Assembly (NCBI GenBank): GCA_041660305.1
Contig: JBAZWO010000001.1
Span: 113,909-177,908 of the forward strand
Source of the DNA: Patescibacteria group bacterium
Lineage (GTDB): Bacteria > Patescibacteriota > Patescibacteriia > UBA9570
Reading direction: 5' to 3'
DNA length: 64,000 nucleotides
Part shown: positions 1-61,002 of the stretch, piece after piece
Position numbering within the stretch: the stretch's first letter is position 1
Layout: each line of letters opens with the position of its first letter
Notes under the pieces: generated by a model
The model's database searches: none
Seen by the model: the letters and a program-made list of their open reading frames with translations, nothing else
Told to the model about the DNA's origin: nothing
Made by a program: the position numbers and the translations under genes

Positions 1-27
1 TTGGGCGGAATGCCCGTGACATCCTTC

Positions 28-732
28 TTACCGGTTGGTTCCCGGAAAAGAAGGAGTTGTCATCATCGCTGCCTGGCCGCCGGTGTTGACATCGCCACCA
101 TTTGCAGTCACTAATGGCTGCTTCATGTGGGTCAGCCCGTACGTGAGCAAACCTGTCGCGATGACCACCCCGGTCGTGATGATTGCGGGCCGGACCCAGG
201 AGCGGTTCCGGCGTGGGGGCTCGTCGGCGGGCAGATCGGCGCCGAGGTCGGGGACGTCGTCGTTCCGGACGGGGGTCTCGGCGAACGTGAATGCCGGCAT
301 GGAGATACCGGTGGAGGATCCGTCAGCACTATGATTATAGTACTTGAACGTTCCACCACTTGCGTTCCCCGATCCGGCCACATCCGCCGCCCTTTGCGCT
401 GCGAGCAGGCTCGCCGTGGCCTCTAGGCACTTTGCCGAGCTGGTCATACCGAGCCCGACGACCTCACCACCTCTCATCAAGGCGGCTTGGAGTGCCTTGT
501 TGGCCTCTTCCTCACTCCGCAAACAGGCGCCCTGCATCTCGAGTACCGTCAAGTCACCCGAGGGAAGGGCTCGTACCCCGCCCGGCATGCTGTAGCCATA
601 GCCAGTGGGGAGGGTCGGGAGAGGCTGAGCGGCCACCGGAGCAGAATTCTGTGCAAAAACAGAGAACTGAACCGCCATCATGATAACGCCCACGATGGCA
701 CAAGCGACGATCAGACTGATCGACTTTTTCAT
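28..732 (-). CDS. hypothetical secreted/membrane-anchored protein (N-terminal signal peptide, C-terminal TM helix), GC-rich
   Basis: 234-aa ORF. N-terminus MKKSISLIVACAIVGVIMMAVQFSVFAQ is signal-peptide-like. There is a C-terminal hydrophobic helix and an AAGGAG ribosome-binding site upstream of the ATG. Local GC is about 62%, against about 35% for the window bulk. Confidence 0.5.
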   Translation of the reverse strand: MKKSISLIVACAIVGVIMMAVQFSVFAQNSAPVAAQPLPTLPTGYGYSMPGGVRALPSGDLTVLEMQGACLRSEEEANKALQAALMRGGEVVGLGMTSSAKCLEATASLLAAQRAADVAGSGNASGGTFKYYNHSADGSSTGISMPAFTFAETPVRNDDVPDLGADLPADEPPRRNRSWVRPAIITTGVVIATGLLTYGLTHMKQPLVTANGGDVNTGGQAAMMTTPSFPGTNR

Positions 733-881
733 AACTCAATCTCCTTGATTTTCTGAAAGCCAGCGACCTCGATGGTCGTGTGATACTTCAGGATGAATAC
801 CTGAGGCCGCTGGCAGATTTTACCGAGAAAAACTGGAATCGGACTGCCCACTTCTACGGTGTGGGCAAAAACCGTGCGGCC

Positions 882-1466
882 TTAGCGCGCCGCAGGTGTC
901 GTCGCCGGAATGCCCGATGCACAGAAACTGTAGTAACCGTTTTGACCGGCCGCTACAAGTCCTGCTGCGAGCTTCTCACACAGAGTGAGCGGCTTGGCTT
1001 TGACCACCACGTGCTTTTTGGGCGGGCGCTTGGTGGTTTCGGCCGGCTTCTCGACTTCTTCGGGGGCGGGGGTAGGCTTGGAACAGTCTGTACCGCAGTT
1101 GACGTTGACCACGGTTGTCCCGGGCGGTACGATGGTCGTCGTTCCAGTAGGAGTCGCAGTGGTGGTCGGAGCGGGCGGCTGGCTGGAGCTGGCTCCCGTC
1201 GCTTCCGGTGCCGGAGTCTCCTCCGGTCCGTAGAGCTTGAGAGCGCTCTCGGCTTCCTGCTTCCAGGAGCTTGCCTTCGCCTCCGCCGCTTTCTTCTCAG
1301 CCAAACGCTCGCGCGCCTGGGCGAGAGGCCCGGTGGGCTCACCGGTTACCTCGGCCGCCGAGGCTGCGCCGTTCTTGTCGAGCCAGCGCCCGGCGTACTT
1401 ACCAAGATTCAACGCACCAAAAACGATGATGATGATGATGAGAATAGCTGTGATTCCGCGAAACAT
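882..1466 (-). CDS. N-terminally anchored Pro/Thr-rich protein (TonB-like topology: TM, Pro/Thr linker, Cys-containing C-terminal domain)
   Basis: The ORF track opens with a TTG; the first ATG gives MFRGITAILIIIIIVFGALNLG (one TM). A PAPEATGASSSQPPAPTTTATPTGTTT linker and a four-Cys C-terminal domain follow. The opposite-strand ORF 780..1550 is Arg-rich nonsense. GC-rich. Confidence 0.45.
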   Translation of the reverse strand: MFRGITAILIIIIIVFGALNLGKYAGRWLDKNGAASAAEVTGEPTGPLAQARERLAEKKAAEAKASSWKQEAESALKLYGPEETPAPEATGASSSQPPAPTTTATPTGTTTIVPPGTTVVNVNCGTDCSKPTPAPEEVEKPAETTKRPPKKHVVVKAKPLTLCEKLAAGLVAAGQNGYYSFCASGIPATTPAAR

Positions 1467-1491
1467 AGTGAACCTCCAAATCTGAACGGTG

Positions 1492-2319
1492 TTAAGCCAG
1501 GAAATACATACCAATTAAGAACGCCGCGATCCCGGCAAGAATCGCAATGATCGCCCACTGCTCGTTGGTCACCGCATCGATTCCGGTTTTAGCCGGAATG
1601 GCGGGCTGAGCGGGCGGGATCTCGATCTTGACGACCGCGGTTGCTGGCTCGGGATCCGGCTTGGCCTTCTTGGCTTCTTCGAGTTGCTTACGCAACTCTG
1701 CCAACTCGGCCTCACGCCGACTTTCCGTTGCCTTACGCGCGATCTCAGCTTCTGTCGCCTTCCGATCCGCTTCCACCTTCTGGAGCCGCTCACGCAGCTC
1801 CTTGGTTTCAGCTTCGGCTTGCTCGCGCGCCGCTTTTTCCTCGGCCAGCTTGCGCTGTGCCTCGGGTTCGGTCTGAACCGGATGCACGGACTCGCGGTCC
1901 TTGCGGAGAACGGAGAACCGGCCGGCAGAGCGGGGAGTCGACTCCTCAGGGGCAGGGGTGGGCTCGGATTTTCCCATCACGCTCTCCCGCACCTTCTTGG
2001 TATCAACGGTCTTGAACAACTCCTCCAGATGGAGGGCGTCACCGTCAATGACCTTGAAGGAAGCGGGAGGTGCGGTAACGGGCGTTTCCGAAGTGAACGT
2101 TGAAATCATTTCGTCCGCCCTTACCTCGGCCTTGCAGCCATAGCTGGTTCGCTTGTTGGCGTGTTCAACCGACAGTTTGCCTTCATCCGTGAAGATGATA
2201 TGGCTTTCCGTACGGTCTGCGTCCAACAGAACGATCAGCAGCACTGCGAACTCGATGGCCGAAGGGGTGTAACCCTCCGGCAGTGCGCGGACGACTTTTC
2301 CGACTGTCAACGAACTCAT
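1492..2319 (-). CDS. tail-anchored coiled-coil protein with N-terminal globular domain
   Basis: ATG at 2317-2319 with GGAGG seven nucleotides upstream (MSSLTVGKVV...). The middle is a charged coiled coil (EAQRKLAEEKAAREQAEAETKELRERLQKVEADRK...). A C-terminal TM helix WAIIAILAGIAAFLIGMYFLA closes the protein. GC-rich. Confidence 0.5.
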   Translation of the reverse strand: MSSLTVGKVVRALPEGYTPSAIEFAVLLIVLLDADRTESHIIFTDEGKLSVEHANKRTSYGCKAEVRADEMISTFTSETPVTAPPASFKVIDGDALHLEELFKTVDTKKVRESVMGKSEPTPAPEESTPRSAGRFSVLRKDRESVHPVQTEPEAQRKLAEEKAAREQAEAETKELRERLQKVEADRKATEAEIARKATESRREAELAELRKQLEEAKKAKPDPEPATAVVKIEIPPAQPAIPAKTGIDAVTNEQWAIIAILAGIAAFLIGMYFLA

Positions 2320-4615: not shown

Positions 4616-4987
4616 ATGCGAGAAATTATTGAATCTTTCGAACAATCCATTAATCGATTAAAAGAAATTTTGCAAGAACAACCAACGATTGCTAATCGTG
4701 ATTCGGCTATTAAGCGTTTTGAATTAACTTGCGAGTTAGCTTGGAAATCATTACAAAAATATTTACGTGAAGAAAAAATTCTTTGTTATTCACCAAAAGA
4801 TTGTTTAAAACAAGCTTTTAAGCTTAATTTAATTCAAGATGATGAACGTTGGTTAAATATGATTGAAGATAGAAATTTATCCGTTCACGTGTATGATGAG
4901 TCTTTTGCCATAGAACTTTATAAGCGTTTACCAAATTACCTGTCTATATTTGAACAGTTATTAAAAACTTTTAAATCGAAATTGTGA
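4616..4987 (+). CDS. HEPN domain protein (HI0074-like nucleotidyltransferase substrate-binding / HEPN toxin)
   Basis: 123 aa, helical, with an R-x4-H-x-Y motif in DRNLSVHVY. Forms an MNT-HEPN pair with 4281..4607. Confidence 0.7.
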   Translation: MREIIESFEQSINRLKEILQEQPTIANRDSAIKRFELTCELAWKSLQKYLREEKILCYSPKDCLKQAFKLNLIQDDERWLNMIEDRNLSVHVYDESFAIELYKRLPNYLSIFEQLLKTFKSKL

Positions 4988-5222: not shown

Positions 5223-5966
5223 CTACTGGCTGCGGCGCAGACGGATCTCGATCCGTCGCCGCGCCTGGTCATTCCGCTGTTTGGTAGTCCCGGTCGCGAG
5301 AGAACCATCAGGCATCTGGGTCTGACCGGCCGATAGCGGCAACACCTGCAGTTTGCCACCCGTGATACGAGTGTCATTCAGCAGGAACTTGGCCACCGTC
5401 ACGGCTCGGGACAAACCCAGATCAGCGTTCGACCCTAAGGCCACGATCTCGTTGGCTTGTCCACTCAAGAACAGGAGCAAGTCCCGATCGAGAGTGGACA
5501 TCTTTCCGTACATAACCGTTTCGTCGGTATGTCCGACTACTTCGATTATGTCCGTGCCATAGGTCGCGGCCAACGTCAGAATTTGCGGGACGATCTTATC
5601 CCGCAGCTTTGCCTCGAAAGTGGCATCAACGTCCGCAGATCCGGACGTGAACGACCAACCACCCGCTTCGGACAGCGCGATGATGGGAGGCTGATCGTTC
5701 TTGGCCTCGGCCTGAAGCTTCTTCAACTTCTCGGCGTCCATGCCGAGTTTTTTTAGCTCCTCGGCCATGGCGCACACCTGCGCCTCGAGCTTTTTGTTTC
5801 TCTCGACGACCTCCTGTGAGGTCGTTTTTGCCAGGTTCTCCTGCAGCCGGTTGGCGTTGGCTGCAAGGATCATGTTTCCTATCATGGAAAGTGTTAGCAA
5901 AAGCAGAAGCACTTCCCAGCCCATGAGCGACTGGAGAAGTGCAGTGTTTCGTTGGTGTGCTGCCAT
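5223..5966 (-). CDS. MotB/OmpA-like protein (one N-terminal TM, coiled coil, OmpA-type peptidoglycan-binding C-terminal domain)
   Basis: C-terminal domain shows GHTDETVMYG...NADLGLSRAVTVAKFL...RRIEIRLRR, the OmpA_C signature. TM helix WEVLLLLLTLSMIGNMILAA. Its ATG overlaps the upstream stop (TAATG). Confidence 0.75.
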   Translation of the reverse strand: MAAHQRNTALLQSLMGWEVLLLLLTLSMIGNMILAANANRLQENLAKTTSQEVVERNKKLEAQVCAMAEELKKLGMDAEKLKKLQAEAKNDQPPIIALSEAGGWSFTSGSADVDATFEAKLRDKIVPQILTLAATYGTDIIEVVGHTDETVMYGKMSTLDRDLLLFLSGQANEIVALGSNADLGLSRAVTVAKFLLNDTRITGGKLQVLPLSAGQTQMPDGSLATGTTKQRNDQARRRIEIRLRRSQ

Positions 5967-6616
5967 TAATTTTTCCCCCCAGCATTCTGGTCAGGGAAAA
6001 AATCATTCAGATCCACCAACAACTTTCCAATTCCCGCGACCAGTACCCGGAACGCCTCGAGATCACCATTGAGCGCGTCCGAGTTCAGACGAGCTCGAGA
6101 CAACGACGTCCGCAATGCTTCCACCTCGGCCGTCACCGCTCCGATATTGCCGCTCCCGCCACCAACATTGCCCGTGTTACCACCACCACTTGCCGATCCG
6201 CCTCCGGAAAGCCCATCGATATAGTTTAGGGCCACCATACAGGTGAGCCCTATTGCCACCGACATCAGACCCTCCATCAGTGGAGCAACGATCTGACCGA
6301 CGGGCATGTCGGTCAGAGCTTTTGTTTTTACCCCGTCGAACACGATCCCCAAGGAAACTGCAAGAGCAGCAACCAGAGAGATAATGCCAATGGCTTGAAC
6401 CAAGGTAGCCACGGCGGTCAGTTGGACAGGATATTCCGTAGGGTCGTTTCTCAAAAACCACCTAACAGAAGTCACTGTGATAAAGATCATTCCCCCGAAT
6501 GCGGCTATGGGGAAGAGAACCTTCATCACGTTCAGGCTGCCAGAGAACCAGGACACGAGGAGCGCGAGCACAATCGCCACGAGAACTGGCAGCACTCGCC
6601 GAATGAGAAACTTCAT
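5966..6616 (-). CDS. MotA/TolQ/ExbB-like four-TM membrane protein with Gly-rich cytoplasmic tail
   Basis: 216 aa with four predicted TM helices; the last two are spaced like a MotA/ExbB family channel. AGGAGG ribosome-binding site. Tightly coupled to the OmpA-like gene downstream. Confidence 0.5.
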   Translation of the reverse strand: MKFLIRRVLPVLVAIVLALLVSWFSGSLNVMKVLFPIAAFGGMIFITVTSVRWFLRNDPTEYPVQLTAVATLVQAIGIISLVAALAVSLGIVFDGVKTKALTDMPVGQIVAPLMEGLMSVAIGLTCMVALNYIDGLSGGGSASGGGNTGNVGGGSGNIGAVTAEVEALRTSLSRARLNSDALNGDLEAFRVLVAGIGKLLVDLNDFFPDQNAGGKN

Positions 6617-6624
6617 GTCACCTC

Positions 6625-7680
6625 CTACTTTTTGCCATCCGTGAGCAGCTTATTACCGAAATCTTGCGATCCGGAAGACAACTGCCCAGCGTATTTTGCC
6701 ATGTAGTCCTGTACCACCTTTTTTCCGGCCACACCGCCACCCTTGAGGGCGGCCAGAATGGCCATCACGGCCATGTCCCGAACTGCCTCGGACCCGTCCA
6801 AGATTCCGCACTGCCCACCGCCGGCTTTGGCGATGGCCTTGAAGTTCTCGAGCGCGAGAGGGCTACCCTCTTTGCACTCGGAATCCTCGGGATGCGGAAC
6901 GTGGAACGTGTGGATGATGACCTTGCTGTCGCGAAGAGTCTTGGCGACATCGGTCGCGACCCCGTTTGGAACGGGGTATCCTCGCTTCCGATAGTACACC
7001 AGTTCCTCTGCGCTGTGGGCACGGGCATCACCAATTATCAGCACCATGTCCACCACATCCTGCATCTGCACCACTTCGTTCAACCCGTATTCCAGAGCCT
7101 CGGGGTAAGGATATGGATCCTCTCCCCGCTCTCCACCGCCGGCCGCGTAGATACCGCGCAACCACTGCTTGATCTGGCCGGGGTCGTTTCTGAATCCGGA
7201 ACGCTCGATGATCTTGCTGTCACCATAGTCTCGATATGCGATAACCTCGACCTGAAGACGCTCTCCGGCCTGCTCTCTTGCCCGCATGACAATGTCATCC
7301 ATCTGATTCCGGACGCCATTGATGGTGGGTTGTTGAGAACCTGTGGCATCGATGAGGATCACGACCTTGCCCTCTTTCTGGGCCGAGGTCTGCTCTTCCT
7401 TCGCCTGCTGGCCTGCCTGCCGATACCGAGCCATACGATCTTCCTGAGACTCAGACAGCCGACCGACGGCGGTTGACTGAGGCTGCTGCCTGGCCACACC
7501 AGTTACGGTGCTTCCAGGCAGAGCCTTGGGCCCGCTGCCACTGCTGGAGCTCTGCTGGGCACTTCCCGGAGGAAGCGCGCGCTGAGGCTGCTGCTGGCCG
7601 CTGCTGCTTGCTGCTTGCTGCTCGGGGTTCTTTTTTTCTACGTCCTTGTCTCCACCACGAAGCTTGCTAAAAAGTCCCAT
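6625..7680 (-). CDS. von Willebrand factor A (vWA) domain protein with Gln/Ser-rich N-terminal region
   Basis: VVILIDATGSQQ is a MIDAS-like D-x-T-x-S, followed by VEVIAYRDYGDS and MVLIIGDARAH beta-strand motifs typical of the vWA fold. AAGGAG ribosome-binding site. Confidence 0.6.
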   Translation of the reverse strand: MGLFSKLRGGDKDVEKKNPEQQAASSSGQQQPQRALPPGSAQQSSSSGSGPKALPGSTVTGVARQQPQSTAVGRLSESQEDRMARYRQAGQQAKEEQTSAQKEGKVVILIDATGSQQPTINGVRNQMDDIVMRAREQAGERLQVEVIAYRDYGDSKIIERSGFRNDPGQIKQWLRGIYAAGGGERGEDPYPYPEALEYGLNEVVQMQDVVDMVLIIGDARAHSAEELVYYRKRGYPVPNGVATDVAKTLRDSKVIIHTFHVPHPEDSECKEGSPLALENFKAIAKAGGGQCGILDGSEAVRDMAVMAILAALKGGGVAGKKVVQDYMAKYAGQLSSGSQDFGNKLLTDGKK

Positions 7681-7691
7681 CGTTCATCTCC

Positions 7692-8972
7692 TTATTTCTT
7701 CGGTTTTCCCTTATCAAGGGTCGCTCTATGCTTAGCAGCGTCCTTGAACAAACGTTCATGCTCTTCGCGCTCCTTGGGAGGAGCGGAGGTATGTCTGTCC
7801 GGATGGTGCTTGAGAGCCATCTTGCGATACGCCTTTTTGATTGTCTCAGCGCTATGCTCGGTGTCCCGAGCATAGCCGAAGAAATCGCAAGCGTCGCACC
7901 AGGCTTGCCAGTCCTTGTCGAACGTGGAAGCCTGTTTCGGATCTTGCCACTTGCCGCCACCATACTGCGCCTGGATCTGCTTGATAAAGGCGTCAATGTC
8001 GCCCCGTACTTGAGCGAGTGACTCGAGCAGTTCAATTACCTCGTCTAGCGACGAGGCATCGTGCACTGCTTTTTCGAGCCGCTCTTTCTCAACAACGAGA
8101 CCGTCCATCAACGCTTCGTTGGCCTTAACCCAGTCCAAAACCTTCTGCTTGCGCATCAGGTCCGGATTCTGAGCCGGCCAATACTGCAGCATCCAGGCGA
8201 TCTGGCCGCCCAGAACGGAGATGAGAAACTGAAAGTTACCCCATTCCTTCTGGAAATCGACCAGTAGAGACCGTGCTTCATTGGCTTCCTCAAGAGAAAG
8301 CCCTGTGGGGTTCGAACTGAACGGCTTGAGCATCTTGAGAAACTGCTCGAAAGCCGCCAGCTGAATTTTTCCACGGAGCCCCTCCGCCTCGGGCACCACC
8401 GCTAACATGATTCTGGCGGTGTCGAGGAGTGTTTCAGCCTGCTGGTGATTAGCCATGTGCATAGCTGAAATAATTTGGTCACGCGAACCGTCCGACAGCC
8501 TACCCCGAAACTCACCGAGCTCGAGGAGGATGCCGATAACCTGGTTGAGACGTACAAACTCCGCCGGGGACTTGGCGCGTATACGATCCACGTTGATCCC
8601 GTAAGCGGAGCAGAACTCCCGGAATGCCTGAACCGGCCCCGGGTGAGTCGCTAAAAGCTGAAAGTACTCACCCGGTATCCACTCCAGCCCCAGCCGCGCG
8701 AACAGAGCATTTGCAGCTCGTTTTTGCAACCGAGGCAGAGCGGGGTGTGCCGTAGGATCAAAACGAGCGAGTCGCGACCGTTTGGGAACCCCGCCGATGC
8801 CGGATCCCGAAACGCGCTGCACCCGCTGCTTGGCCTGCGGCCCGACAGACTGTGGGGTTGAAGGGTCAGGGACCCCCAACCGCCGTCGAAGCCCAATAGG
8901 CAGACGGTGGCCGAGGGCGAGAAGCACACTCAAGAACCTCTTGAGTAGCTCCTCTAGGGCGGACTTAATCAT
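7692..8972 (-). CDS. large helical protein with C-terminal DnaJ J-domain (HPD motif)
   Basis: C-terminus SAETIKKAYRKMALKHHPDRH is a canonical J-domain. Start chosen at MIKSALEEL, with GGGAGG four nucleotides upstream. The ORF track extends to 9050. Confidence 0.8.
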   Translation of the reverse strand: MIKSALEELLKRFLSVLLALGHRLPIGLRRRLGVPDPSTPQSVGPQAKQRVQRVSGSGIGGVPKRSRLARFDPTAHPALPRLQKRAANALFARLGLEWIPGEYFQLLATHPGPVQAFREFCSAYGINVDRIRAKSPAEFVRLNQVIGILLELGEFRGRLSDGSRDQIISAMHMANHQQAETLLDTARIMLAVVPEAEGLRGKIQLAAFEQFLKMLKPFSSNPTGLSLEEANEARSLLVDFQKEWGNFQFLISVLGGQIAWMLQYWPAQNPDLMRKQKVLDWVKANEALMDGLVVEKERLEKAVHDASSLDEVIELLESLAQVRGDIDAFIKQIQAQYGGGKWQDPKQASTFDKDWQAWCDACDFFGYARDTEHSAETIKKAYRKMALKHHPDRHTSAPPKEREEHERLFKDAAKHRATLDKGKPKK

Positions 8973-9028
8973 CGAACCTCCCTTGTGGCCATTCGTTAGC
9001 CACGTTTTTCGTTTTCTAAAATCAAAAA

Positions 9029-9048
9029 AATTTCCAAAAAAAATCCTC
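9029..9048. repeat. right terminal inverted repeat of GC-rich island
   Basis: TTTCCAAAAAAAATCCTC is the reverse complement of the left repeat at 5195-5212, allowing for T-run length. Confidence 0.5.
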
Positions 9049-9103
9049 AATTTTCAACGATCAAGCCTGTAACAAAGATATTATCCTTGCCAGGCTAATT
9101 TAA

Positions 9104-9405: not shown

Positions 9406-9717
9406 ATGAGTACAAAACAGCTGAATGATATTGTAAAAACCATTACTAAAGAAATACAGCCAGAACAAGTGGTGTTGTTTGGTTCACAAGTATGGGGTAC
9501 TCCTCACATAGGTAGCGATATTGATTTATTAGTAGTAGCCAATACTACTGGTAAAATGGAGTATTTACGTAAAATACGCCAAGTTTTATTTGGCCACAAC
9601 TTTCCGCCGATAGATTTAATCACCTATTCAGCCTCGGAAATTAAGCAGCGTATTACTCAAGGCGATAGTTTTTTGGCAGAAATTATGAACAGAGGCAAAA
9701 TAGTTTATGAACGCTAA
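9406..9717 (+). CDS. nucleotidyltransferase (MNT antitoxin)
   Basis: VVLFGSQVWGTPHIGSDIDLLVV. Overlaps the downstream HEPN gene by 11 nt. Confidence 0.75.
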   Translation: MSTKQLNDIVKTITKEIQPEQVVLFGSQVWGTPHIGSDIDLLVVANTTGKMEYLRKIRQVLFGHNFPPIDLITYSASEIKQRITQGDSFLAEIMNRGKIVYER

Positions 9718-10123
9718 TATTTTGCCGATCATTGTTCAAGAATGGCTAGACAAAGCTAATAATGATGAATTAAACGCTCAATCAATTTTAAAACATAAAG
9801 ACGGCACACCAAGTGGTGTTTGTTTTTTGTCGCAACAAATGGCTGAAAAATATTTGAAAGCTTTTTTAATGTTTCATAAAAAACCATTACAAAAAATCCA
9901 TGCGTTAGATCGGTTATTAGAATCTTGCATTGAAATAAATAATGATTTAAGCACACTGAAAGATGATGTAATTTTTTTAACAGATTTCTATATTTCCACA
10001 CGTTACCCAGCTGATATACCGGATTCATCCTGGAATGACGCTGAACATGCTCTAACGGCCGCTAAGCATGTAAAAGATGTAATAATAAAAACATTAGCAT
10101 TATCAGCGTCATCAGAAATTTAA
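9707..10123 (+). CDS. HEPN domain protein (PF05168-like)
   Basis: QQMAEKYLKAFL and a C-terminal ISTRYPAD motif typical of HEPN. Paired with the MNT gene upstream. Confidence 0.7.
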   Translation: MNANILPIIVQEWLDKANNDELNAQSILKHKDGTPSGVCFLSQQMAEKYLKAFLMFHKKPLQKIHALDRLLESCIEINNDLSTLKDDVIFLTDFYISTRYPADIPDSSWNDAEHALTAAKHVKDVIIKTLALSASSEI

Positions 10124-10140: not shown

Positions 10141-10950
10141 TCAGCGTTTCAAATGATCCTGCATGCTCACTGGCTCATCTGGTTTGCCGTCTACCGCGTT
10201 AAAACGATCTAACACTTTATATTGTGGGGGTTCCACTGGTTCCACGATGGTAGAGACGCCCCGGCGGGGCGTCTCTACCTTGTTGGGCAACGTCTCTACC
10301 TTAGGTGTTTCTACAGGGGATTCCTGTGGGAACGCGATATATCGCGTTCTCTTCGCCTCAAATTTTAACAAATAATACGTATAAGACGCTAACAAGCCTA
10401 GCGCGCCAGCGGCTGCTCCATTGAGTGGTATATTTGGTTTTACTGGTCTATTACTAGTAACCGGCCCTTCAATTTGTTTTATGTATACGCTATCTCCCCC
10501 ACCATAATAATCAGAGGAGTTAGTAGTTAACACCTGCGCAACACCGGTAGCAATGCCTTCCGCGTTAGCAGGATTAGTGCCATAACCAAATATTTTAATA
10601 ATACCGGTTTCTGGCACTACTTCGGCGCTTACCAGTTTTTCCCAAGCACTTTTTTTATCATTCGAATCGATACTAAACTGCTCTGGTTTTACCTGGCCAG
10701 TTTCTAATACTCGATTCAAAAAATCTAGTGAAGTAATTACGTTTACCAAGCTGTTTCCCAAGCTAGCGGCCGCCCGTTGCGCTGTGTAGGAATCTACCGT
10801 AGCGCTTTGCTTTTGCACAATTAGTAAATCTACTTCCGATTTATATAATTGATCGGGAATAAACGATAAACCAACGGCAATAGCCGCGCATACTAACGTG
10901 CTGCATGTTATTACTAGCCAGTGTTCTTTAATCAGAAGTAAATAACGCAT
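10141..10950 (-). CDS. Wzz-like polysaccharide chain-length determinant protein (TM-periplasmic-TM)
   Basis: N-terminal TM plus a C-terminal TM (GAAAGALGLLASYTYYLLK). The C-terminal region carries an in-frame copy of the palindrome GTAGAGACGC...GCGTCTCTAC. Confidence 0.55.
   Translation of the reverse strand: MRYLLLIKEHWLVITCSTLVCAAIAVGLSFIPDQLYKSEVDLLIVQKQSATVDSYTAQRAAASLGNSLVNVITSLDFLNRVLETGQVKPEQFSIDSNDKKSAWEKLVSAEVVPETGIIKIFGYGTNPANAEGIATGVAQVLTTNSSDYYGGGDSVYIKQIEGPVTSNRPVKPNIPLNGAAAGALGLLASYTYYLLKFEAKRTRYIAFPQESPVETPKVETLPNKVETPRRGVSTIVEPVEPPQYKVLDRFNAVDGKPDEPVSMQDHLKR
10250..10323. repeat. family B perfect palindrome (GTAGAGACGC-ccccggcgggg-GCGTCTCTAC) plus two degenerate half-copies, inside CDS
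   Basis: 29-bp perfect palindrome at 10250-10278. Other copies are at 16646-16673 and 29766-29793. Confidence 0.8.
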
Positions 10951-10958
10951 AAATTTAT

Positions 10959-13900
10959 TTAGCCTTGCAATGTAGCATTTAAAATGTCTTTACCATCGAA
11001 TTCAACTTTATGTGGCAACAAACCTCGTTCTAAGGCGTGTTGAATAACACTAAGGGCTTCTTTAGCAGCCGGATCACCAGCCGAAGCATGCTTAGAAATA
11101 TCTTGAGCTACATCTACCCAACGCTGCGCTTGAGCGAGCAAACCTGAATTGCGTTCAAAGCCAAGTGAAAAATGTAAAAGAGGTTCACCATGATGCCCAG
11201 CTATTTCAGCAACCGGATAATGTGGCTTTAACACTCCGGATATTTTATCCATGGCTCTATGCATGCCTTCTGCTACTGCTTCCTTAATCTGGCCAACACT
11301 ATTGGAAGCACTCACATGAATAGGTTCCACCCCAGCTACTTTGGTAGATATATCAATCTGCGCCATTTTTCCTATTACTTCCTCTTTAAAATAAACACCA
11401 TGTTCATAACGTCCTTTACACGTAGAAAAACTATCTTCGACTTGTTTTAATAATTGTTTAGCCTGCCAGATAGTTTCAGCTGGTGCCCGCTGCGCTTTAT
11501 AATCAGCCAACATATCCTGCATTTGTTTTACTTGTTGTTCTTGAGCAATAATATCTTTAATCGCTCCTACTCTCATTTCTGGCGGAACAAACTTGCCTGA
11601 GAGCGGTTCTCCATAATGGCTTAAATCAACATCATTATATTTTAATCCATTATTATATGGCGCAACAATTTTATCCCAATCTGCCGTGCCTGGTTTTACG
11701 GAAATTACTTCTGCTACACCATCATTATTATGCACGTAAAAATATTCTGGCTGGTGGGTAATTGGATTCGTTACTTGGCGTAACGGTTCATCAAATGGTT
11801 CATAATCGGAAGAAACATATAAATCTGTTTCTAAACCTTCCATGCTTGTACCAGGATTAGTACCTACCGCCGGAAAATGATAATCTACACCATGAAAACG
11901 TTCTGGGTGTTGCAACATATCAGTTTGGGTATGTGCCCACTGTTGCTCAGAAGTTAAAGCCTGCTCAATGCCGTGCGGATTCAGATCAGCACGTGCCCCA
12001 GCTGGTTCTACAGAATTACCAGCCCCATGCCCAACCCCGTGTCCGTGCGGCAAATCCACCGCTGGTGCCTGGTCACCGGCCTCAAACGAATAATGCGCCT
12101 GGCCGTCACTGCCTACATTAGCCACCACTTTATCACCTTCATGCGTTAAATTATACCACTGTCCTTTACTTTTTAATTCCTGCATTGCGTTAGCAAATTC
12201 TTTCTTCACCCAAGCCGATTCGCTTATATCGGAACTTTTATCATAACCTAATTCTTTCGCGTTTTGCCGGATTAAATGCAATAATGATCTTGACTCAAAA
12301 TCCTTACCACTTGTGCCGGTAATTTCATCTTCAATTTTTACCATTGGCGCAGTATGATCTGGAGTCAACGTACCAGCTTCTTGCGCTCGAGATAAATCTT
12401 CCCGAACAGCGGCTGCTGCTCGCTGAATTTGCTCGTTAGTAAATGGCCGATCAATAATTTCCTGACGATCCTTAGCCCATTGTTTTTGAAAATTGGATTC
12501 TGTCTGAGCAGTGGCTCGTTGTGCTAACCATTCATTGAGTTCGTGCATGCCAATGGCACCCAAAGCCGCTCCGGCTACACCGCCAGCTACTTTATAGCCT
12601 AATTTAACATGATCAAATTGTTTTTGTTTTTCATAATGCTCTACAATATGATCATTCTGCTGGGTGGCTAACCCTAAGCTCATTCTAGCATCGTTAACTA
12701 ATAATTCTTCTAACCGTTGCGCTTCAGTTTGTAAACGAACATATTCTATTGAACGCTGGCCTTGTTCATTGGTTTGGGCTTTAACATATTTTGGATTATT
12801 TAATTGTTCACGCACTTGCGCTAATTTTAAGCTTAACTCTTTCGGTGAAGTTACCTTATCAATATCATGTAATTCCTTAGCGGTAATAGCGCTGGCATAC
12901 TCTGCGCCCATAACTGCACTAGCCCGTTTTGTACCAACTTTTTCACCTAACATCATGCCCAGCTTACCACCAGCTAGTGCTCCAGTATATACACGTAATC
13001 CAGGTACATAGCGAGTGGCTATACCAACGCCAGCAAATAAAAATGCTTGGATAGATTTTTCTGTAGTTGTATTTTTTCCAACCCCTAACGTAAGTACATT
13101 AGCTACTCGTTTTACCCAGCTATTATCCAGAGCCTTAGCCATTTTACCTGGCTGATTATGTTGCATATCTGCCTCAAATAAATCGTTACCAGCTTCTACT
13201 AAATATAGTTTTTTTACTGCTTCCGCCATTTGTTCAATAGGCTTAATCATTTTTTCCCAGGCATCTTTCTTGTTTTTATCTGTCGGATTGGCATCGTAAT
13301 CATCTCGAATAGCTTCATAATTAGCTATGCCATAACGCTTGGCTAATTGATCCAATGAGCCACGTTCAATTTGGTTGGCTCGTTGTGATATTAAATGATC
13401 TAAACCAGTTTTAAAAGCACCTTTATCTTTATCCTTCGCTGCAACGTATTGTTTAGTAGTATTTTCTATTGAAACTTCTAATGGCACGGTACCGTCACGT
13501 TTGGTTTTAACTTTTTGTTCCACCGCCACGGCAATTCTGGCTAACACATCGTTAACACATTGTTTATATTTATCGCTATCTGTTTTTTCTAATTCAGAAC
13601 GAATACCTTTTTCTTGTTTTACCGCGCCTTTTTTATCACGAAAATGTTCGTGCAAATTAAATACCATTCTGGCAGCCAACGCACCAGCCGCTCCAACTGC
13701 AAACGCTGGCATAGCTACAGCTAAGGTAGTAGCTGCCAAACCAGCCCCAATACCAACACCGGCTATGGTGCCAATTTTTCCGGCCGTCCGCCAAAAGCTT
13801 TTAGGTACCGCTGTCTGCTGATCGGCTCTAGCCTGTTCATACACCTGCTGATCCTGCATTAAAAACATCAGCTGCGCATCTGTTTCTGCCAAGCCAATAT

Positions 13901-15836
13901 GATCGGCTAAATTTTTTAGTTCAGCCGCATCTAATTTTAATACTGTACCTGCTTTACCAGCATCTTTATTAGCTAAAGCACTAATTAATTTTTCTATGTA
14001 TTTTTTTAAATCTCCGCCTTTAGCCAATTCCGCTTCCAAATTTTTCATTACAGCATACTTGTCCTTAGCTTCGTCACGTTTCGCTGTTTCCATGCGCACT
14101 GTATTTAATAATTCTTTAGTATTCGGTTGATCAGTAAATTTTTTGGCGGCACAGCTAGTTTCAATAGCCGCAATAAACCCATCATGAGCCTTTTTAATGT
14201 CGGCCGGATCTTTCACGTCCACTGTAATTTCCGCACCACCTTCCTCTAATTGATAAGTTACTACCGTTTTATCTTTATCAACATGCAATTTAAATACCGC
14301 TGGTTTATCAGCGTATTTTGCTTTCGTAGTTGGATTTACTGTATAATCACGCGTGAGTGTGTAATTTATTTCCGTATCTTTTTTATCTTCTTTTGCTTTA
14401 CCAAGTGCTAAATATTCTGGTATTTCTTTACCAATTACGCCAACGCCTGGCAAATTCCATTCATCAGCAGCTACTGGACTATCTACTAATTTTTTAGCTT
14501 CGGCTTCTAATGCTGCTTTAGCTGCGGCAGTTTCTAATTTGGCTTTTTTTTCAGTACAGAATTTTTCGGTTTCTTTAACAAATTTATCATTAAATATACT
14601 TTGTAATACACCAGCATCATTGGCTTTTAATTTTTGCGCTTTAGCACTATCCGCTACTTTATATTCCACAGCCGCCGGCTTATTTGGTTCAATCACTATT
14701 TTAAAATAAGCGCCCGTAGAACTATAGGCCCTATCTTTGTATGGTTTAGTTAATGTAATGGTTCTAGATTTTCCTGCACTAACACTTTCAGAAATACTAC
14801 CACTATCCAAATAGTCATCTAATGATAACTTTAAACTTTCATTATTAGCTAAATCGATTTGTTCATCATGAGCGTCGGTTAAATATTTTTCTATGGTACT
14901 AGTTAAATCTGCTTCATCTTTTTCTTGTTTAACTTTTTTATCGGCTTCCGTTTTAATAAAGTTAGTTACTTCACTTTGAAAATTTCTATATTCACGTACC
15001 GCGGCTGCTGGATTAGGTGCTGGTTTAGGACCAACGGTTCTGCCACCATATGCTGTATACTCAATAGTTACTCCATGGTCTGTTACTAACATAGTAAATT
15101 CAGCTGGCACAGCACTTAGTGCTGGCGTTCCTTCGTATGGCTGTATATAATTATAAGCTATGCTATCGCCTATAGAAGCCGCTCCACTAAAATCAGAGCG
15201 TGTTAATTCAGCATGACCTAATTCTGGCAAATCCAACGCCGCAAAAGCTTTCCCACCAATTTCCCAATTTACATCTCCGTCTTTAAAATTGGTAACGTAT
15301 CGCTTATCAAGATCTTTTATCTGTTCTGCCGGTATTCCTTTGCGAGCTACTTCTTGAGCATTAACTACACCAACCATTTTAGCTTGATAAATCCGTTCAG
15401 TTTCCTTAGCTAAATCATCCAGCTGTTTTATTAATTGTTCATTATCAATTGTAAAACCTGTTATTAAAGTCATATCAAGAATATCTCTTAAATCAGATTT
15501 GAAACGTTGTTCGGCTCGTTCAATAACCTTTTGTAATTCTACCAAAGCTGCTTTAGCTGTGTCTTTAGCTAATTCTACATTTTCTTTAGCAGTAATTATT
15601 TTGTCTTCCGTGTCAGCGTCTTTCAATTCTTTACTAGCAGCTTTAAATGCATCACGAGCAGCATTTACATCTTTAACCGCTTGTTCCGCGCGCCCAACAA
15701 AACGTTGCCGTTGTTCGGCTGGATTAATAGCATCACCTGCACTCACTGGAGCACTACCAGCAGCTGAATCTGGTTTTGCTTTTTTCTTTTTCTCGTCTTT
15801 TTTATCTTTTTTTAGATCTTTATCGTGTTTGCCCAT
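10959..15836 (-). CDS. giant protein (1625 aa) with internal glycine-zipper TM segments
   Basis: Single uninterrupted ORF. Lys-rich N-terminus and no signal peptide. Three Gly/Ala-rich hydrophobic segments (GTIAGVGIGAGLAATTLAVAMPAFAVGAAGALAA, AFLFAGVGIATRY, VAGGVAGAALGAIGM). A His/Gly-rich region occurs near residue 1190. Confidence 0.6.
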   Translation of the reverse strand: MGKHDKDLKKDKKDEKKKKAKPDSAAGSAPVSAGDAINPAEQRQRFVGRAEQAVKDVNAARDAFKAASKELKDADTEDKIITAKENVELAKDTAKAALVELQKVIERAEQRFKSDLRDILDMTLITGFTIDNEQLIKQLDDLAKETERIYQAKMVGVVNAQEVARKGIPAEQIKDLDKRYVTNFKDGDVNWEIGGKAFAALDLPELGHAELTRSDFSGAASIGDSIAYNYIQPYEGTPALSAVPAEFTMLVTDHGVTIEYTAYGGRTVGPKPAPNPAAAVREYRNFQSEVTNFIKTEADKKVKQEKDEADLTSTIEKYLTDAHDEQIDLANNESLKLSLDDYLDSGSISESVSAGKSRTITLTKPYKDRAYSSTGAYFKIVIEPNKPAAVEYKVADSAKAQKLKANDAGVLQSIFNDKFVKETEKFCTEKKAKLETAAAKAALEAEAKKLVDSPVAADEWNLPGVGVIGKEIPEYLALGKAKEDKKDTEINYTLTRDYTVNPTTKAKYADKPAVFKLHVDKDKTVVTYQLEEGGAEITVDVKDPADIKKAHDGFIAAIETSCAAKKFTDQPNTKELLNTVRMETAKRDEAKDKYAVMKNLEAELAKGGDLKKYIEKLISALANKDAGKAGTVLKLDAAELKNLADHIGLAETDAQLMFLMQDQQVYEQARADQQTAVPKSFWRTAGKIGTIAGVGIGAGLAATTLAVAMPAFAVGAAGALAARMVFNLHEHFRDKKGAVKQEKGIRSELEKTDSDKYKQCVNDVLARIAVAVEQKVKTKRDGTVPLEVSIENTTKQYVAAKDKDKGAFKTGLDHLISQRANQIERGSLDQLAKRYGIANYEAIRDDYDANPTDKNKKDAWEKMIKPIEQMAEAVKKLYLVEAGNDLFEADMQHNQPGKMAKALDNSWVKRVANVLTLGVGKNTTTEKSIQAFLFAGVGIATRYVPGLRVYTGALAGGKLGMMLGEKVGTKRASAVMGAEYASAITAKELHDIDKVTSPKELSLKLAQVREQLNNPKYVKAQTNEQGQRSIEYVRLQTEAQRLEELLVNDARMSLGLATQQNDHIVEHYEKQKQFDHVKLGYKVAGGVAGAALGAIGMHELNEWLAQRATAQTESNFQKQWAKDRQEIIDRPFTNEQIQRAAAAVREDLSRAQEAGTLTPDHTAPMVKIEDEITGTSGKDFESRSLLHLIRQNAKELGYDKSSDISESAWVKKEFANAMQELKSKGQWYNLTHEGDKVVANVGSDGQAHYSFEAGDQAPAVDLPHGHGVGHGAGNSVEPAGARADLNPHGIEQALTSEQQWAHTQTDMLQHPERFHGVDYHFPAVGTNPGTSMEGLETDLYVSSDYEPFDEPLRQVTNPITHQPEYFYVHNNDGVAEVISVKPGTADWDKIVAPYNNGLKYNDVDLSHYGEPLSGKFVPPEMRVGAIKDIIAQEQQVKQMQDMLADYKAQRAPAETIWQAKQLLKQVEDSFSTCKGRYEHGVYFKEEVIGKMAQIDISTKVAGVEPIHVSASNSVGQIKEAVAEGMHRAMDKISGVLKPHYPVAEIAGHHGEPLLHFSLGFERNSGLLAQAQRWVDVAQDISKHASAGDPAAKEALSVIQHALERGLLPHKVEFDGKDILNATLQG

Positions 15837-16470: not shown

Positions 16471-17250
16471 CTATTTTTTACGAAAAGTCAAGTAAAAACC
16501 ACAAAGTACCGAAACAACCCCAATATACTGCGCCGCCGTTAAACCAAACCAGCGGCTATCTAGTATGCGATCAAAATCCAACATTACCCTGACTAATCCA
16601 TCCCAGATTAAAAACAGACCTACGAAAAACGGCGGTTTTGTTTTTGTAGAGACGCATTGCAATGCGTCTCTACAAAAATGTTTAATCAACGTGAACACCC
16701 CAAACAACCCGGCGCCGCTAATGGCCAAATATAATCCATGGTTATGCCGCACTAGCCCATCGCCGTAATACACTTCCCCTAGAAAAAAATTAGTAACACT
16801 GCCAGGATGATCGAATATAAAAAAGCAGCCTAAGCGGCCAATAGCTAAGCCAAGCGGCAATACAAACGCGGCCAAATCGGCATATGGCCAGAATGGTAAC
16901 TTTTTTTTACGTAAATAAATAACCGCGGTAATAATAGCCCCAAGAAATCCCCCACTAATAGACATGCCCCCATCCCAAATTTTAAATATTTCTACAAAGT
17001 TACTAGTAAAATATTGCCATTCAGTAATAACATAAAACAATCTAGAGCCGATAAACGCGGCTAACACTACCCAAAACGTTAAATCGATCATGGTTTCTCC
17101 GGATATTTTCCATTGCGCCGCTGAACGCTTGGCTACTAACGCGGCCGCTAAAATACCCAGTGCCACAAACAAGCCCCATACTTGAATATTGATGAGGCTA
17201 AGTGGAATTGTAGACCAGTGGAGATTGGGTAACATAGGGATAGACCTCAT
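16471..17250 (-). CDS. lgt: prolipoprotein diacylglyceryl transferase
   Basis: Polytopic membrane protein with GRLGCFFIFDHPG, an Lgt-like signature. The annotated ATG lies inside the repeat end, so the true start is probably MLPNLHW at about 17235. An in-frame palindrome insertion lies at 16646-16673. Confidence 0.7.
   Translation of the reverse strand: MRSIPMLPNLHWSTIPLSLINIQVWGLFVALGILAAALVAKRSAAQWKISGETMIDLTFWVVLAAFIGSRLFYVITEWQYFTSNFVEIFKIWDGGMSISGGFLGAIITAVIYLRKKKLPFWPYADLAAFVLPLGLAIGRLGCFFIFDHPGSVTNFFLGEVYYGDGLVRHNHGLYLAISGAGLFGVFTLIKHFCRDALQCVSTKTKPPFFVGLFLIWDGLVRVMLDFDRILDSRWFGLTAAQYIGVVSVLCGFYLTFRKK
16646..16673. repeat. family B perfect palindrome inserted in-frame in lgt
   Basis: GTAGAGACGCattgcaatGCGTCTCTAC encodes ...CRDALQCVS... 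within Lgt. Confidence 0.8.
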
Positions 17251-17350
17251 CCCCCTAACCCCCTTCTCCTGCAGGAGAAGGGGGAAAAATTAATTTAACC
17301 TCCCCCTCTTCCCTTTACAGGGGAAGAGGGGGCCGGGGGGTGATGAGGTC
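17244..17350. repeat. family A MITE-like element with terminal inverted repeats GACCTCATC/GATGAGGTC
   Basis: gacctcatcc...cccccttctcctgcaggagaaggggg...cccctcttccctttacaggggaagaggggg...gatgaggtc. Fills the lgt to dsbA-like intergenic gap exactly. Confidence 0.8.
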
Positions 17351-18124
17351 TTACGGATTAAGGTAAGTTTTTAATTCACTTTCCAAGTACTCATGATTCA
17401 CATAACCATTCACGGATTCCAGTTTGCCATCGTTATGCCAAATAATCAAAGCTGGCTGGCTGTGTAAATCTAGGCTAACGGCTTCAGTAGCATCTTTGCT
17501 AATTTGCTGTTCTGTGGCCGGTAACGCTAAACACTGTTGAAATTGTTCAATATTTAACTCTAACGATTTCGCCACTGTTAATTCCGTTTCCGTAGACAAA
17601 TTAATTTGAAACTCATATAACTGCTCCAGATATTCACGTAGCTTATTTTGTTTAGCCGCACATTCTGCCGCCATAGCCGCTAATTTTGCCTGCGGATGAA
17701 TTTGCTCTAACGGATAGTGTTTGATAATTAAGCGCACATTATTAGGATGATCATTAACAAACTGGTTCACTTCCGGAAAAAACTTTTTACAAAACCGGCA
17801 CTCTACATCTACATATTCTACGAGAGTGACTGTGTAATTTTCTTTGGCACCAAAAATATGTTGTTCGTCTGGCACTATTACACTAGCCTGACTAGCTGTA
17901 ACCGGAGCGGTAGCGTCTTTTAATAAACTCGGGGTAAAATCTAGCGGCATAGTAGTATAGGTACCAATATTACCACCGGATAACGCGTACATAAAAAACC
18001 CGGCGCCAATTAACGTCATAATCAAAATTCCCACAACCGTACCAATAATAAACGTGAGCCTGGCATTGGAATGCGCCGTAAATAAATGTGGATCGGGTAC
18101 TGACGCTGGCGTTGGCGTATTCAT
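17351..18124 (-). CDS. membrane-anchored thioredoxin-fold thiol:disulfide oxidoreductase (DsbA-like)
   Basis: N-terminal TM plus a CRFC active-site motif in YVDVECRFCKKF. Confidence 0.6.
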   Translation of the reverse strand: MNTPTPASVPDPHLFTAHSNARLTFIIGTVVGILIMTLIGAGFFMYALSGGNIGTYTTMPLDFTPSLLKDATAPVTASQASVIVPDEQHIFGAKENYTVTLVEYVDVECRFCKKFFPEVNQFVNDHPNNVRLIIKHYPLEQIHPQAKLAAMAAECAAKQNKLREYLEQLYEFQINLSTETELTVAKSLELNIEQFQQCLALPATEQQISKDATEAVSLDLHSQPALIIWHNDGKLESVNGYVNHEYLESELKTYLNP

Positions 18125-18165
18125 TAAGTTAATATATATGAAATTACGTAATAATTCAAATTCCT

Positions 18166-18310
18166 ACCTCACCTCCAACCTCCTCTCCTCTAAGGAGAGG
18201 AGGAGAAATTTATTAAATTTTATTTTATTCCCCCTCTCTCCTTAGAGGAGAGAGGGGGTAGGGGAAGTGAGGTAGGCTGTTTAGGGGAAGGGGGTTAGGG
18301 TGATGAGGTC
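18166..18310. repeat. family A repeat (long form)
   Basis: cctcctctcctctaaggagaggaggag ... ccccctctctccttagaggagagaggggg ... gatgaggtc. Confidence 0.8.
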
Positions 18311-19569: not shown

Positions 19570-19738
19570 CCCCTAAATCACCTTTCCCCAACCTACCTCA
19601 CCTCCCAGCCTCCTCTCCTCTCAGGAGAGGAGGAGAAATTTCTTAAATTGCATTTTATTCCCCCTCTCTCCTCAGAGGAGAGAGGGGGTAGGGGGAGTGA
19701 GGTAGGATGTTTAGAGGGGGTCGGGGGGTGATGAGGTC
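19570..19738. repeat. family A repeat (long form)
   Basis: Same nested palindromes as 18166-18310. Ends in gatgaggtc. Confidence 0.8.
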
Positions 19739-21060: not shown

Positions 21061-21228
21061 AGACCTCTATCCCCAACCCTTTCCCAACCTACCTCACCTC
21101 CCGGCCTCCTCTCCTCTAAGGAGAGGAGGAGAAATTTATTAAATTTTATTTTATTCCCCCTCTCTCCTCTGAGGAGAGAGGGGGTAGGGGGAGTGAGGTA
21201 GGCTGTTTAGGGGGCTGGGGGGCTTAGA
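21061..21228. repeat. family A repeat (long form)
   Basis: agacctctatcccc ... same palindromes as other long copies. Confidence 0.8.
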
Positions 21229-24000: not shown

Positions 24001-24156
24001 CCCCCTTTCCCAACCTACCTCACCTCCCGGCCTCCTCTCCTCTAAGGAGAGGAGGAGAAATTTATTAAATTGCATTTTATTCCCCCTCTCTCCTCAGAGG
24101 AGAGAGGGGGTAGGGGGAGTGAGGTAGGATGTTTAGTGAGTCGGGGGTGATGAGGT
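24001..24156. repeat. family A repeat (long form)
   Basis: Same nested palindromes. Ends in gatgaggtc. Confidence 0.8.
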
Positions 24157-26142: not shown

Positions 26143-26215
26143 CAGACCTCATCCCCCTAGCCCCCTTCTCCTAACAACCTACCTCATCCCCAGCCCTTCT
26201 CCTCTCAGGAGAAGG
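26143..26215. repeat. family A repeat (short form)
   Basis: gacctcatccccctagcccccttctcct ... ctcaggagaaggg. Confidence 0.7.
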
Positions 26216-26279
26216 GAGTTATACTACTATTATTGAGCGCTCACATTTTTTTAATTGAGCGTTTTTATATTTATTTTTT

Positions 26280-26606
26280 ATGTTTATTCGTCCACAACAA
26301 TCTAACACCATTGAATTACAACATCGTTTACAATATATCGCTAAAAAATTTCGTAAAAAACCAACCGTAACTGAACAAAAATTATGGCAATATTTACGAA
26401 ATCGTAAATTAAATGGTTTAAAATTTAATCGACAACATCCAATCTATCAATACATTGCTGATTTTTATTGCCATGAGTATAAGTTGATTAGGGATTTAAT
26501 GTTAAAAAAATATGACTATACCGTATTACGTTTTAATAATGAACAAGTGATGAATAATATTAGTTATGTGTTAAAACAAATTAAATCTACTCCCCCTTCT
26601 CCTTAG
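26280..26606 (+). CDS. DUF559-type endonuclease-like protein, apparently with an internal deletion (possible pseudogene)
   Basis: PTVTEQKLWQYLRNRKLNGLKFNRQHPIYQYIADFYCHEYKLI matches DUF559. The expected catalytic core (...IEVDG...) is missing. The C-terminal residues and stop come from the family A repeat. Confidence 0.5.
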   Translation: MFIRPQQSNTIELQHRLQYIAKKFRKKPTVTEQKLWQYLRNRKLNGLKFNRQHPIYQYIADFYCHEYKLIRDLMLKKYDYTVLRFNNEQVMNNISYVLKQIKSTPPSP

Positions 26607-60993: not shown

Positions 60994-61002
60994 ATTTTTT
61001 AA

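Follow-up and report, generated by a model that had tools for sequence, protein, structure and literature searches.

A 64-kb stretch of DNA (the window) from a metagenome-assembled genome (MAG) of Patescibacteria, in the Candidate Phyla Radiation (CPR) and close to Kerfeldbacteria, carries three perfect palindromes with common 10-nt arms (GTAGAGACGC/GCGTCTCTAC) and differing self-complementary cores. These palindromes are most probably (probability about 0.8) double-foot repetitive extragenic palindromes (REPs), the cognate repeat of subclass 2.4 of the REP-associated tyrosine transposases (RAYT/TnpA-REP, Bertels' Group 4), and would have been spread by a RAYT acting on the hairpin. The first-pass annotation of the window had placed three palindromes with identical 10-bp arms exactly where they were found and had taken them for a miniature repeated element, not a coding coincidence, which the present analysis bears out; its further view that the element is a distinct, new one gave way to a match with the published double-foot REP of subclass 2.4 (PMC6006769). 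The family is already published, and what is modestly new is its occurrence in the CPR, the REPs found in one loop of the protein Lgt in four lineages, and a compensatory change in one pair of arms.

Structure and identity of the palindromes

The window holds several dispersed copies within 64 kb, three of them intact and one probably decayed, together with a solo arm:

REP copy 1, 10250-10278: 29 nt, GTAGAGACGC-CCCGGCGGG-GCGTCTCTAC, palindrome perfect over 31 nt (10249-10279)
REP copy 2, 16646-16673: 28 nt, GTAGAGACGC-ATTGCAAT-GCGTCTCTAC
REP copy 3, 29766-29793: 28 nt, GTAGAGACGC-CCGGCCGG-GCGTCTCTAC, intergenic
Solo left arm, 10290-10299, minus strand: GTAGAGACGT, 9/10 match, 21 nt from the arm of copy 1
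Probable decayed fourth copy, 10326-10353: 28 nt, GTGGGAACGC-GATATATC-GCGTTCTCTT, 47 nt from copy 1

The arm 10-mer, counted with no more than one mismatch, occurs seven times in the window against 1.38 expected, a count reached in 0 of 100 shuffles, and the GC-rich hairpins are conspicuous against a background of 40% GC. As single-stranded DNA the three copies have folding energies of -14 to -18 kcal/mol (z -5.7 to -9.4; copy 1, -17.7 kcal/mol, z -6.5), with a predicted stem of 12-14 bp and a loop of 3-4 nt on the element itself, and copy 2, which together with its TTTTT/AAAAA flanks forms a perfect 38-nt palindrome (16641-16678), has a predicted stem of 17 bp when these flanks are included. 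No family was matched in a search of the whole window against Rfam at the gathering threshold. A TAG is read in one frame of the element on either strand and the other two frames per strand are open, which gives rise to the recurrent peptides VET...SL and RD...VST.

The published description of the family agrees with these features. Subclass 2.4 of TnpA-Y1 is defined by the motifs NH[IFV]H, WQ and YIxNNP (Quentin et al., 2018, PMC6006769), its double-foot REP has a 5' GT[AG]G and a 3' C[TC]AC, the tnpAREP genes typically contain the REP in frame between their HuH and Y motifs or have it on their flanks, and the subclass is distributed over Cyanobacteria, Bacteroidetes and scattered phyla (PMC6006769). 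The REP given for a Chloroflexus aggregans REPtron in Table S1 of that study, for example, is GTAGAGACGCACGGCCGTGCGTCTCTAC, with a length of 28 nt, a stem of 12, a loop of 4 and a double foot (PMC6006769). The Group 4 RAYTs are the same proteins, recorded in 61 species and 17 classes with flanking 16-mers in about 14 copies (Bertels et al., 2017, PMC5581495). Literature searches returned only false matches for RAYT in Patescibacteria and, for the literal arm 10-mer in full text, only unrelated primers for the polymerase chain reaction. All three window copies begin with GTAG and end with CTAC, and their lengths (28, 28, and 29 nt), 12-bp stem and 3-4-nt loop are those of a double-foot REP. The window arms GTAGAGACGC/GCGTCTCTAC are identical to those of the C. 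aggregans REP, the core of which (ACGGCCGT) is also the commonest core in the genome scan described below.

Two degenerate half-sites had been annotated beside copy 1, and one of them holds: GTAGAGACGT is the solo arm listed above, and GTAGAAACAC matches at only 7/10 positions. The solo arm encodes the second VET of the string VETPK-VETLPNK-VETPRRGVST and is probably a local partial duplication of the arm, the VET repeats being at most that; Tandem Repeats Finder reported no array around copy 1. The segment at 10326-10353, which contains a perfect 20-nt palindrome (10330-10349), is probably a decayed REP copy. Its inner 16 nt (ACGCGATATATCGCGT) equal the inner part of the variant with a GATATATC core, a core present in two other loci (L029 and L105), and its 20-mer has no exact match in any of the loci compared.

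Distribution across genomes and viral contigs

A scan of one genome per species with the pattern GTAGAGACGC-N5-12-GCGTCTCTAC found the element, with identical arms and length, in at least 120 stretches from Bacteroidota, Cyanobacteria, Chloroflexota, Patescibacteria, Gracilibacteria, Acidobacteriota, Planctomycetota, Proteobacteria, and others. Among the matches listed, the stretches carrying it range from 31 to 74% GC, 28 nt is the most frequent length, the cores are of more than 25 kinds (mostly perfect 8-nt palindromes), three other CPR genomes are represented (L039, L056, and L077), and stretches with more than one copy have essentially one core in 9 of 10 cases. When viral contigs are included, 27 same-locus pairs share their core and 20 have different cores. 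Mispairs in 225 eight-nt cores from the genome and viral stretches are concentrated at pair 3 (85) and pair 4 (29), with 11 at pairs 1-2, and since almost all of them fall in the central 4 nt, the conserved object is a 12-bp stem with a 4-nt loop. Around 133 copies the flanking sequence is not conserved beyond a weak Y at -1 and R at +1, with neither a target-site duplication nor a conserved insertion target among them; the element sometimes sits at the tip of a longer hairpin.

The palindrome is also present on 93 stretches of viral contigs (IMG/VR), and no RAYT was found on these stretches. In several related viral contigs (among L127, L128, L129, L141, and L145) two copies lie exactly 1,857 nt apart. 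The two copies in L127 bracket an open reading frame (ORF) of 434 aa, a putative phage major-capsid protein as judged from its translation, and an ORF of 108 aa, and the translation of a neighbouring 337-aa ORF resembles a prohead protease. The viral copies could represent a route of spread between hosts, or could simply be REPs serving as intergenic hairpins.

Association with a RAYT gene

The partner of the element was searched for without a presupposed candidate, by all-against-all clustering of the ORFs from 120 stretches, and the most recurrent neighbour was one family of HUH/Y1 proteins. This RAYT-like family was found by profile hidden Markov model (HMM) in 9 of the 120 stretches (861 kb), for which the chance expectation of a single-copy gene is estimated at well under once, and the RAYT-like genes in those nine stretches carry the palindrome or are flanked by copies of it. 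The family has the motifs MPNH[LFVI]H, WQ and YIxNNP, its best NCBIfam match is the REP-associated tyrosine transposase (1e-18, below the curated cutoff), and it also has a weak match to Pfam Y1_Tnp. Of its 120 best database homologues, 108 contain the palindrome-encoded peptide, a figure raised by the presence of the peptide in the query profile.

In two of the RAYT genes (L038:863-1600 and L078:4587-5768) long runs of tandemly repeated peptides, all in frame, flank the internal REP: L038 has (SHD)n and (SNEQ)n, and L078 has (DDGRGLHG)n and (PHET)n. This suggests that the REP hairpin promotes local slippage, and the VETPK-VETLPNK-VET string beside copy 1 may be a small version of that effect.

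Copies within and between genes of the window

Two of the three intact copies lie inside genes and the third lies between two others:

Wzz-like gene, 10141-10950, minus strand: protein of 269 aa with the Pfam Wzz, N-terminal domain; P0241, from a Patescibacteria MAG, is 100% identical
lgt, 16471-17250, minus strand: prolipoprotein diacylglyceryl transferase (PF01790, 1.6e-45); P0001 is 100% identical and, like P0241, encoded on a contig of 491,640 bp; E. coli Lgt is 5AZB
murC, 28359-29762, minus strand: likely start an ATG at about 29738
Bro-N-domain ORF, 29803-30114, minus strand: PF02498, 2.7e-11; stop codon at 29803-29805

Copy 2 is translated in frame on the minus strand of lgt as CRDALQCVST, with a net gain of 27 nt, that is, 9 residues, so that the reading frame is kept. 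The extra residues are absent in 14 of the 15 aligned orthologues, and in those Lgt orthologues that do have extra residues in this loop the DNA likewise contains a palindromic 28-mer; orthologues with the same residues encoded by non-palindromic DNA, which the first-pass annotation had named as the case against an inserted element, were not encountered. In an AlphaFold model of Lgt (pLDDT, the predicted local distance difference test, 83), the insertion (F192-T202, pLDDT 62-74) maps between helices 171-192 and 208-227, corresponding to the loop between predicted transmembrane helices 5 and 6 (TM5-TM6), in keeping with the loop position foreseen for it, and in an alignment with E. coli Lgt (5AZB) the helix after the insertion matches the helix around residues 222-267. 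The insertion site in the model is thus a short, basic, length-variable inter-helix loop.

Similarly, copy 1 is translated in frame as VETPRRGVST in the variable C-terminal tail of the Wzz-like protein, and the frame past it continues into the motifs PxYKVLD and VSMQDH, which are conserved in 29 homologues. The decayed copy encodes RTRYIAFP in the same tail and accounts for the 11 extra residues TRYIAFPQESP, which are absent in both close orthologues. The orthologue alignments therefore agree with the earlier proposal that in-frame insertion added residues to both Lgt and the Wzz-like protein. Copy 3, which had been assigned to the murC 5' region, is instead intergenic, between the Bro-N stop and the murC start: it lies 10 nt past the stop codon of the Bro-N ORF, 4 nt upstream of the TTG start of the longest murC ORF and 28 nt upstream of the likely ATG. 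On the minus strand copy 3 was matched in a lax terminator scan, and the tail that follows it (ACTTTGATAT) is a poor U-tract. The flanks of copy 2, with T upstream and A downstream, have the wrong polarity for an intrinsic terminator, and copies 1 and 2 are within ORFs.

The Lgt loop and the Wzz-like tail in relatives

An orthologous lgt copy with the same core as copy 2 was found in a relative (L122) whose Lgt is 70% identical to that of the window. Arm position 10 is altered on both sides in L122 (C>G and G>C; GTAGAGACGG...CCGTCTCTAC), and the two copies are identical at 26 of 28 positions compared with 70% over the gene as a whole (P about 0.0014). Read from the sequences, the change in the L122 arms is a compensatory pair with which stem complementarity is retained. 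In another relative (L121) the lgt site is empty, and it is too diverged to define the insertion junction. The three closest Lgt sequences have pairwise identities of 70.0, 72.2, and 74.7%, which are too flat to separate one gain and one loss from two gains. In L121 and L122 the gene order is lgt, the Wzz-like gene, DUF5663, a small ORF and a gene for a giant protein; in the window (10959-15836 compared), the Wzz-like gene is on the far side of the gene for the 1,625-aa giant protein, a difference which shows that the neighbourhood of the REP-bearing genes has been rearranged locally.

REPs occupy the same Lgt loop in two more distant CPR lineages, namely the 28-nt GCAGAGACGC-GATTAATC-GCGTCTCTAC in L220 (1457-1486) and the 28-nt GTAGGGACAT-ACCATGGC-ATGTCCCTAC, that is GTAGGGACATACCATGGCATGTCCCTAC, in L221 (5566-5593). 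The loop therefore carries 28-mers of differing sequence in four lineages; all of the Lgt-loop REPs are 28 nt long, are translated as RD....V[SP]T and begin 6-9 residues past the same helix anchor. A further copy in L221 (GTAGGGACAAGTCGCGACTTGTCCTTAC, 8690-8717) lies within a PDZ-domain gene. In the Wzz-like orthologue P0265 (46% identity), the same tail contains GRDVPPARLY, a REP-like peptide in another frame. At the peptide level, GRDVPPARLY is the third-frame reading of a REP of the 29-nt type, which suggests that a REP was inserted independently in the part of the tail that holds copy 1 in the window.

The simplest reading of the shared occupancy of the Lgt loop is a tolerance filter in compact genomes, the alternative being targeted insertion or replacement at resident REPs. 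A wider proposal, which we regard as rather doubtful, is that double-foot REPs have settled more than once in the same few permissive protein segments of CPR bacteria related to Kerfeldbacteria (the Lgt TM5-TM6 loop in four lineages and the Wzz-like tail in two) and have stayed near-perfect there, by way of compensatory changes, while the lineages diverged for long, possibly with no RAYT in the genome. This would imply, if true, site-directed insertion or replacement at existing REPs, or else a selected role at the nucleic-acid level in essential genes of a streamlined genome.

Proposed mechanism and alternative explanations

A mechanism for the spread of the element can be set beside the hairpin architecture, the covariation of the stem, the association with RAYT genes in other genomes and the in-frame survival of copies in permissive segments, all of which are observed. 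The hairpin would form on DNA that is transiently single-stranded during replication, at the fork; a RAYT would recognise it through the stem and the GTAG foot, cut and rejoin the DNA, and thereby seed copies at new sites. Copies would survive only where they are harmless, which in a compact CPR genome would include permissive protein loops and tails, and after fixation the stem would stay complementary. The RAYT step is proposed by analogy with TnpA-IS200 and with the nuclease activity of the E. coli TnpA-REP, the in vitro activity being cited only for this subclass 2.2 enzyme (PMC6006769).

Several points weigh against the interpretation of the window palindromes as double-foot REPs spread by a RAYT. 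A RAYT-like ORF was not found in the 64-kb window, either by tblastn or by a profile HMM that was built from 129 RAYT sequences and run on all stop-free frames (best E = 0.33), and the short contigs of the CPR relatives contained no RAYT. The three window copies have three different cores, so that nothing in them points to a recent amplification from a single master copy; they may be old. The count of 108 in 120 RAYT-like homologues with the palindrome-encoded peptide is inflated by a query profile which itself included the peptide. To our knowledge, in vivo transposition of a REP by a RAYT has not been demonstrated in any family and subclass 2.4 is without biochemistry, nor does PMC6006769 claim otherwise. 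Neither palindrome nor RAYT was found in two short contigs (L123 and L124) which are 100% identical to the left end of the window and add 5.6 kb to it. Literature searches returned only false matches for RAYT in Patescibacteria and, for the literal arm 10-mer in full text, only unrelated primers for the polymerase chain reaction.

The absence of a RAYT from the window and the heterogeneity of the cores, which suggests old copies, would also be expected of orphan relics, left behind when a reduced genome lost its RAYT and kept the hairpin for a DNA- or RNA-level use of its own, with candidate roles in terminating transcription or stabilising mRNA 3' ends (copy 3), in pausing replication or translation, and in binding a host protein. 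Other REP families have been reported as terminators, mRNA stabilisers and protein-binding sites (PMC3733652), copy 3 has the position and the lax-scan match described above, and conservation of the lgt copy far exceeds that of its gene, the copy having changed by a compensatory pair. Nevertheless, the absence of a RAYT rests on only 64 kb of the genome, a terminator inside ORFs would be harmful at copies 1 and 2, the U-tract of copy 3 is poor, and mismatch correction in an extruded hairpin could also yield a compensatory change with no selected function needed; on balance, orphan relics appear improbable. The regular geometry of the element, with its perfect two-fold symmetry, invariant 10-bp arms and variable centre, resembles the half-sites of a dimeric regulator, and the first-pass annotation had accordingly offered a binding site for a dimeric DNA-binding protein. 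Protein recognition as such is retained in this proposal, in that a RAYT nuclease likely recognises the hairpin, but nothing indicates an operator-type site on double-stranded DNA: two of the three copies are within coding sequence and not at promoters; the same 28-mer occurs in many phyla over 31-74% GC with unrelated neighbours and, among the matches listed, no recurrent regulator; core positions 1-2 co-vary so as to pair, leaving just the 4 nt in the centre free, as expected of a stem-loop rather than a spacer; and the sole recurrent neighbour is an HUH single-strand nuclease. Operator-type sites are accordingly very unlikely. The least credible explanation, to the point of being negligible, is coincidental palindromy arising from selection on the encoded peptides, for which nothing speaks beyond the fact that two copies are translated. 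Copy 3 is non-coding, the peptides are absent in most orthologues (the alignments refute the idea), the same DNA is translated in different frames in different genes, and a perfect 28-nt palindrome is expected by arithmetic only about 2e-4 times per 64 kb, in addition to the over-representation of the arm 10-mer.

The interpretation as double-foot REPs extends the known range of the subclass 2.4 element to the CPR, where the shortness of the spacers between genes may drive the copies that survive into loops and tails of proteins. It also means that peptides such as VET....SLQ, RD....VST and GRD....RLY are a translated mobile 28-nt hairpin and not conserved protein motifs, and that they are unfit as homology signals. 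The recurrent occupancy of the Lgt loop and the compensatory arm substitution bear on how REPs choose or survive at sites and on the complementarity of the stem. The finding is solid but ordinary and leaves the general picture of REPs unchanged.

Other features of the window

A second, more abundant repeat in the window is a composite of about 115 nt with terminal inverted repeats (CCTACCTCACCTCCC / GGGGGAGTGAGGTAGG) and internal polypurine/polypyrimidine hairpins (CCTCCTCTCCTC-NNN-GAGGAGAGGAGG and CCCCCTCTCTCCT-NNN-AGGAGAGAGGGGG), which looks like a MITE (a miniature transposable element with inverted repeats) or an element of the kind of REPINs (paired REPs that form a hairpin). It is found at the following approximate positions:

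2555-2850
17240-17380
18150-18290
19580-19720
21076-21216
24002-24142
26165-26660
38380-38510
60970-61070

Nearly every intergenic spacer among the metabolic genes at 17-26 kb is filled by this repeat, and copies about 90% identical to it are present in two JGI contigs from another sample (L218 and L219).

Two segments of the window (1-2000 and 6000-8000) have 57-61% GC compared with about 38% for the genome, and may be foreign or mobile DNA. In or near these segments, the ORFs at 28-732, 1492-2394, and 5966-6616 had no Pfam match, the ORFs at 6625-7680 and 5223-5966 had weak matches below the Pfam cutoff to VWA_4 and OmpA, respectively, and the ORF at 7692-9050, which adjoins the second high-GC segment, has a C-terminal DnaJ domain. 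Positions 1-2809 of the window are 100% identical to short contigs of two other assemblies (L123 and L124). A nucleotidyltransferase (NTase)/HEPN pair, an arrangement of the toxin-antitoxin type, lies at 9406-10123 directly downstream of the Wzz-like gene, and a separate NTase-substrate-binding (HEPN-like) ORF is located at 4616-4987.

Comparison with known systems

Rho-independent terminators resemble the element in having a GC-rich stem-loop just past a stop codon (copy 3 only), and differ in that the element lacks a proper U-tract, has two of its copies (1 and 2) within ORFs and keeps an identical stem across phyla. Rickettsia palindromic elements (RPEs), to which the palindromes had first been likened, are likewise palindromic repeats lying in frame within protein-coding genes that are not destroyed by them, and to this extent the analogy stands; size, sequence and end tag all differ. 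RPEs are about 100-150 bp long and known only from Rickettsia. Identity with RPEs was rejected, since the present element is 28-29 nt long, has GTAG/CTAC ends, belongs to a Patescibacteria MAG and shows no sequence relationship. The RPE end tag is CGTC and not GTAG, and CGTC repeats have no associated transposase (PMC3733652). A MITE, which is 70-300 bp long with the terminal inverted repeats of a parent insertion sequence (IS) and target-site duplications (PMC3733652), was also rejected for the element, which is 28 nt as a whole and shows no duplication in the flanks of 133 copies.

The subterminal hairpins of the IS200/IS605 family (TnpA-IS200, for example IS608) are closer to it: they too are single-stranded DNA hairpins that an HUH/Y1 enzyme from the same superfamily recognises, and a short guide or foot sequence adjoins the stem. 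These hairpins, however, are part of an IS of 0.7-2 kb with its own transposase, whereas here the 28-mer is the whole element. The classical REPs, bacterial interspersed mosaic elements (BIMEs) and REPINs of Enterobacteria and Pseudomonas (RAYT subclasses 2.2 and 2.5; PMC3733652) share with it the GC-rich hairpin, the GTAG foot, dispersed copies tied to a single-copy HUH/Y1 gene and occasional in-frame intragenic copies; GTAG-tagged REPs inside genes without disruption of the frame have been described (Di Nocera et al., 2013, PMC3733652), and in-frame intragenic REPs are also recorded elsewhere (PMC6006769). Classical REPs have one unpaired GTAG foot, often a bulged stem, and hundreds of copies that usually form inverted pairs, whereas in the window element the foot is paired with its complement, the palindrome is single and perfect and the copy number seems low.

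The closest counterpart is the double-foot REP of subclass 2.4. The window differs from the published cases in its Patescibacteria (CPR) host, which is unnamed in the host-taxon summaries of PMC6006769 and PMC5581495, in having no cognate RAYT within 64 kb and three cores in one 64-kb stretch, and in having two of its three copies in housekeeping genes and not in a RAYT gene. Both share the length of 28 nt, the GTAG...CTAC ends, the 12-bp stem and 4-nt loop, the in-frame insertion, a low to moderate copy number and a patchy spread over many phyla.

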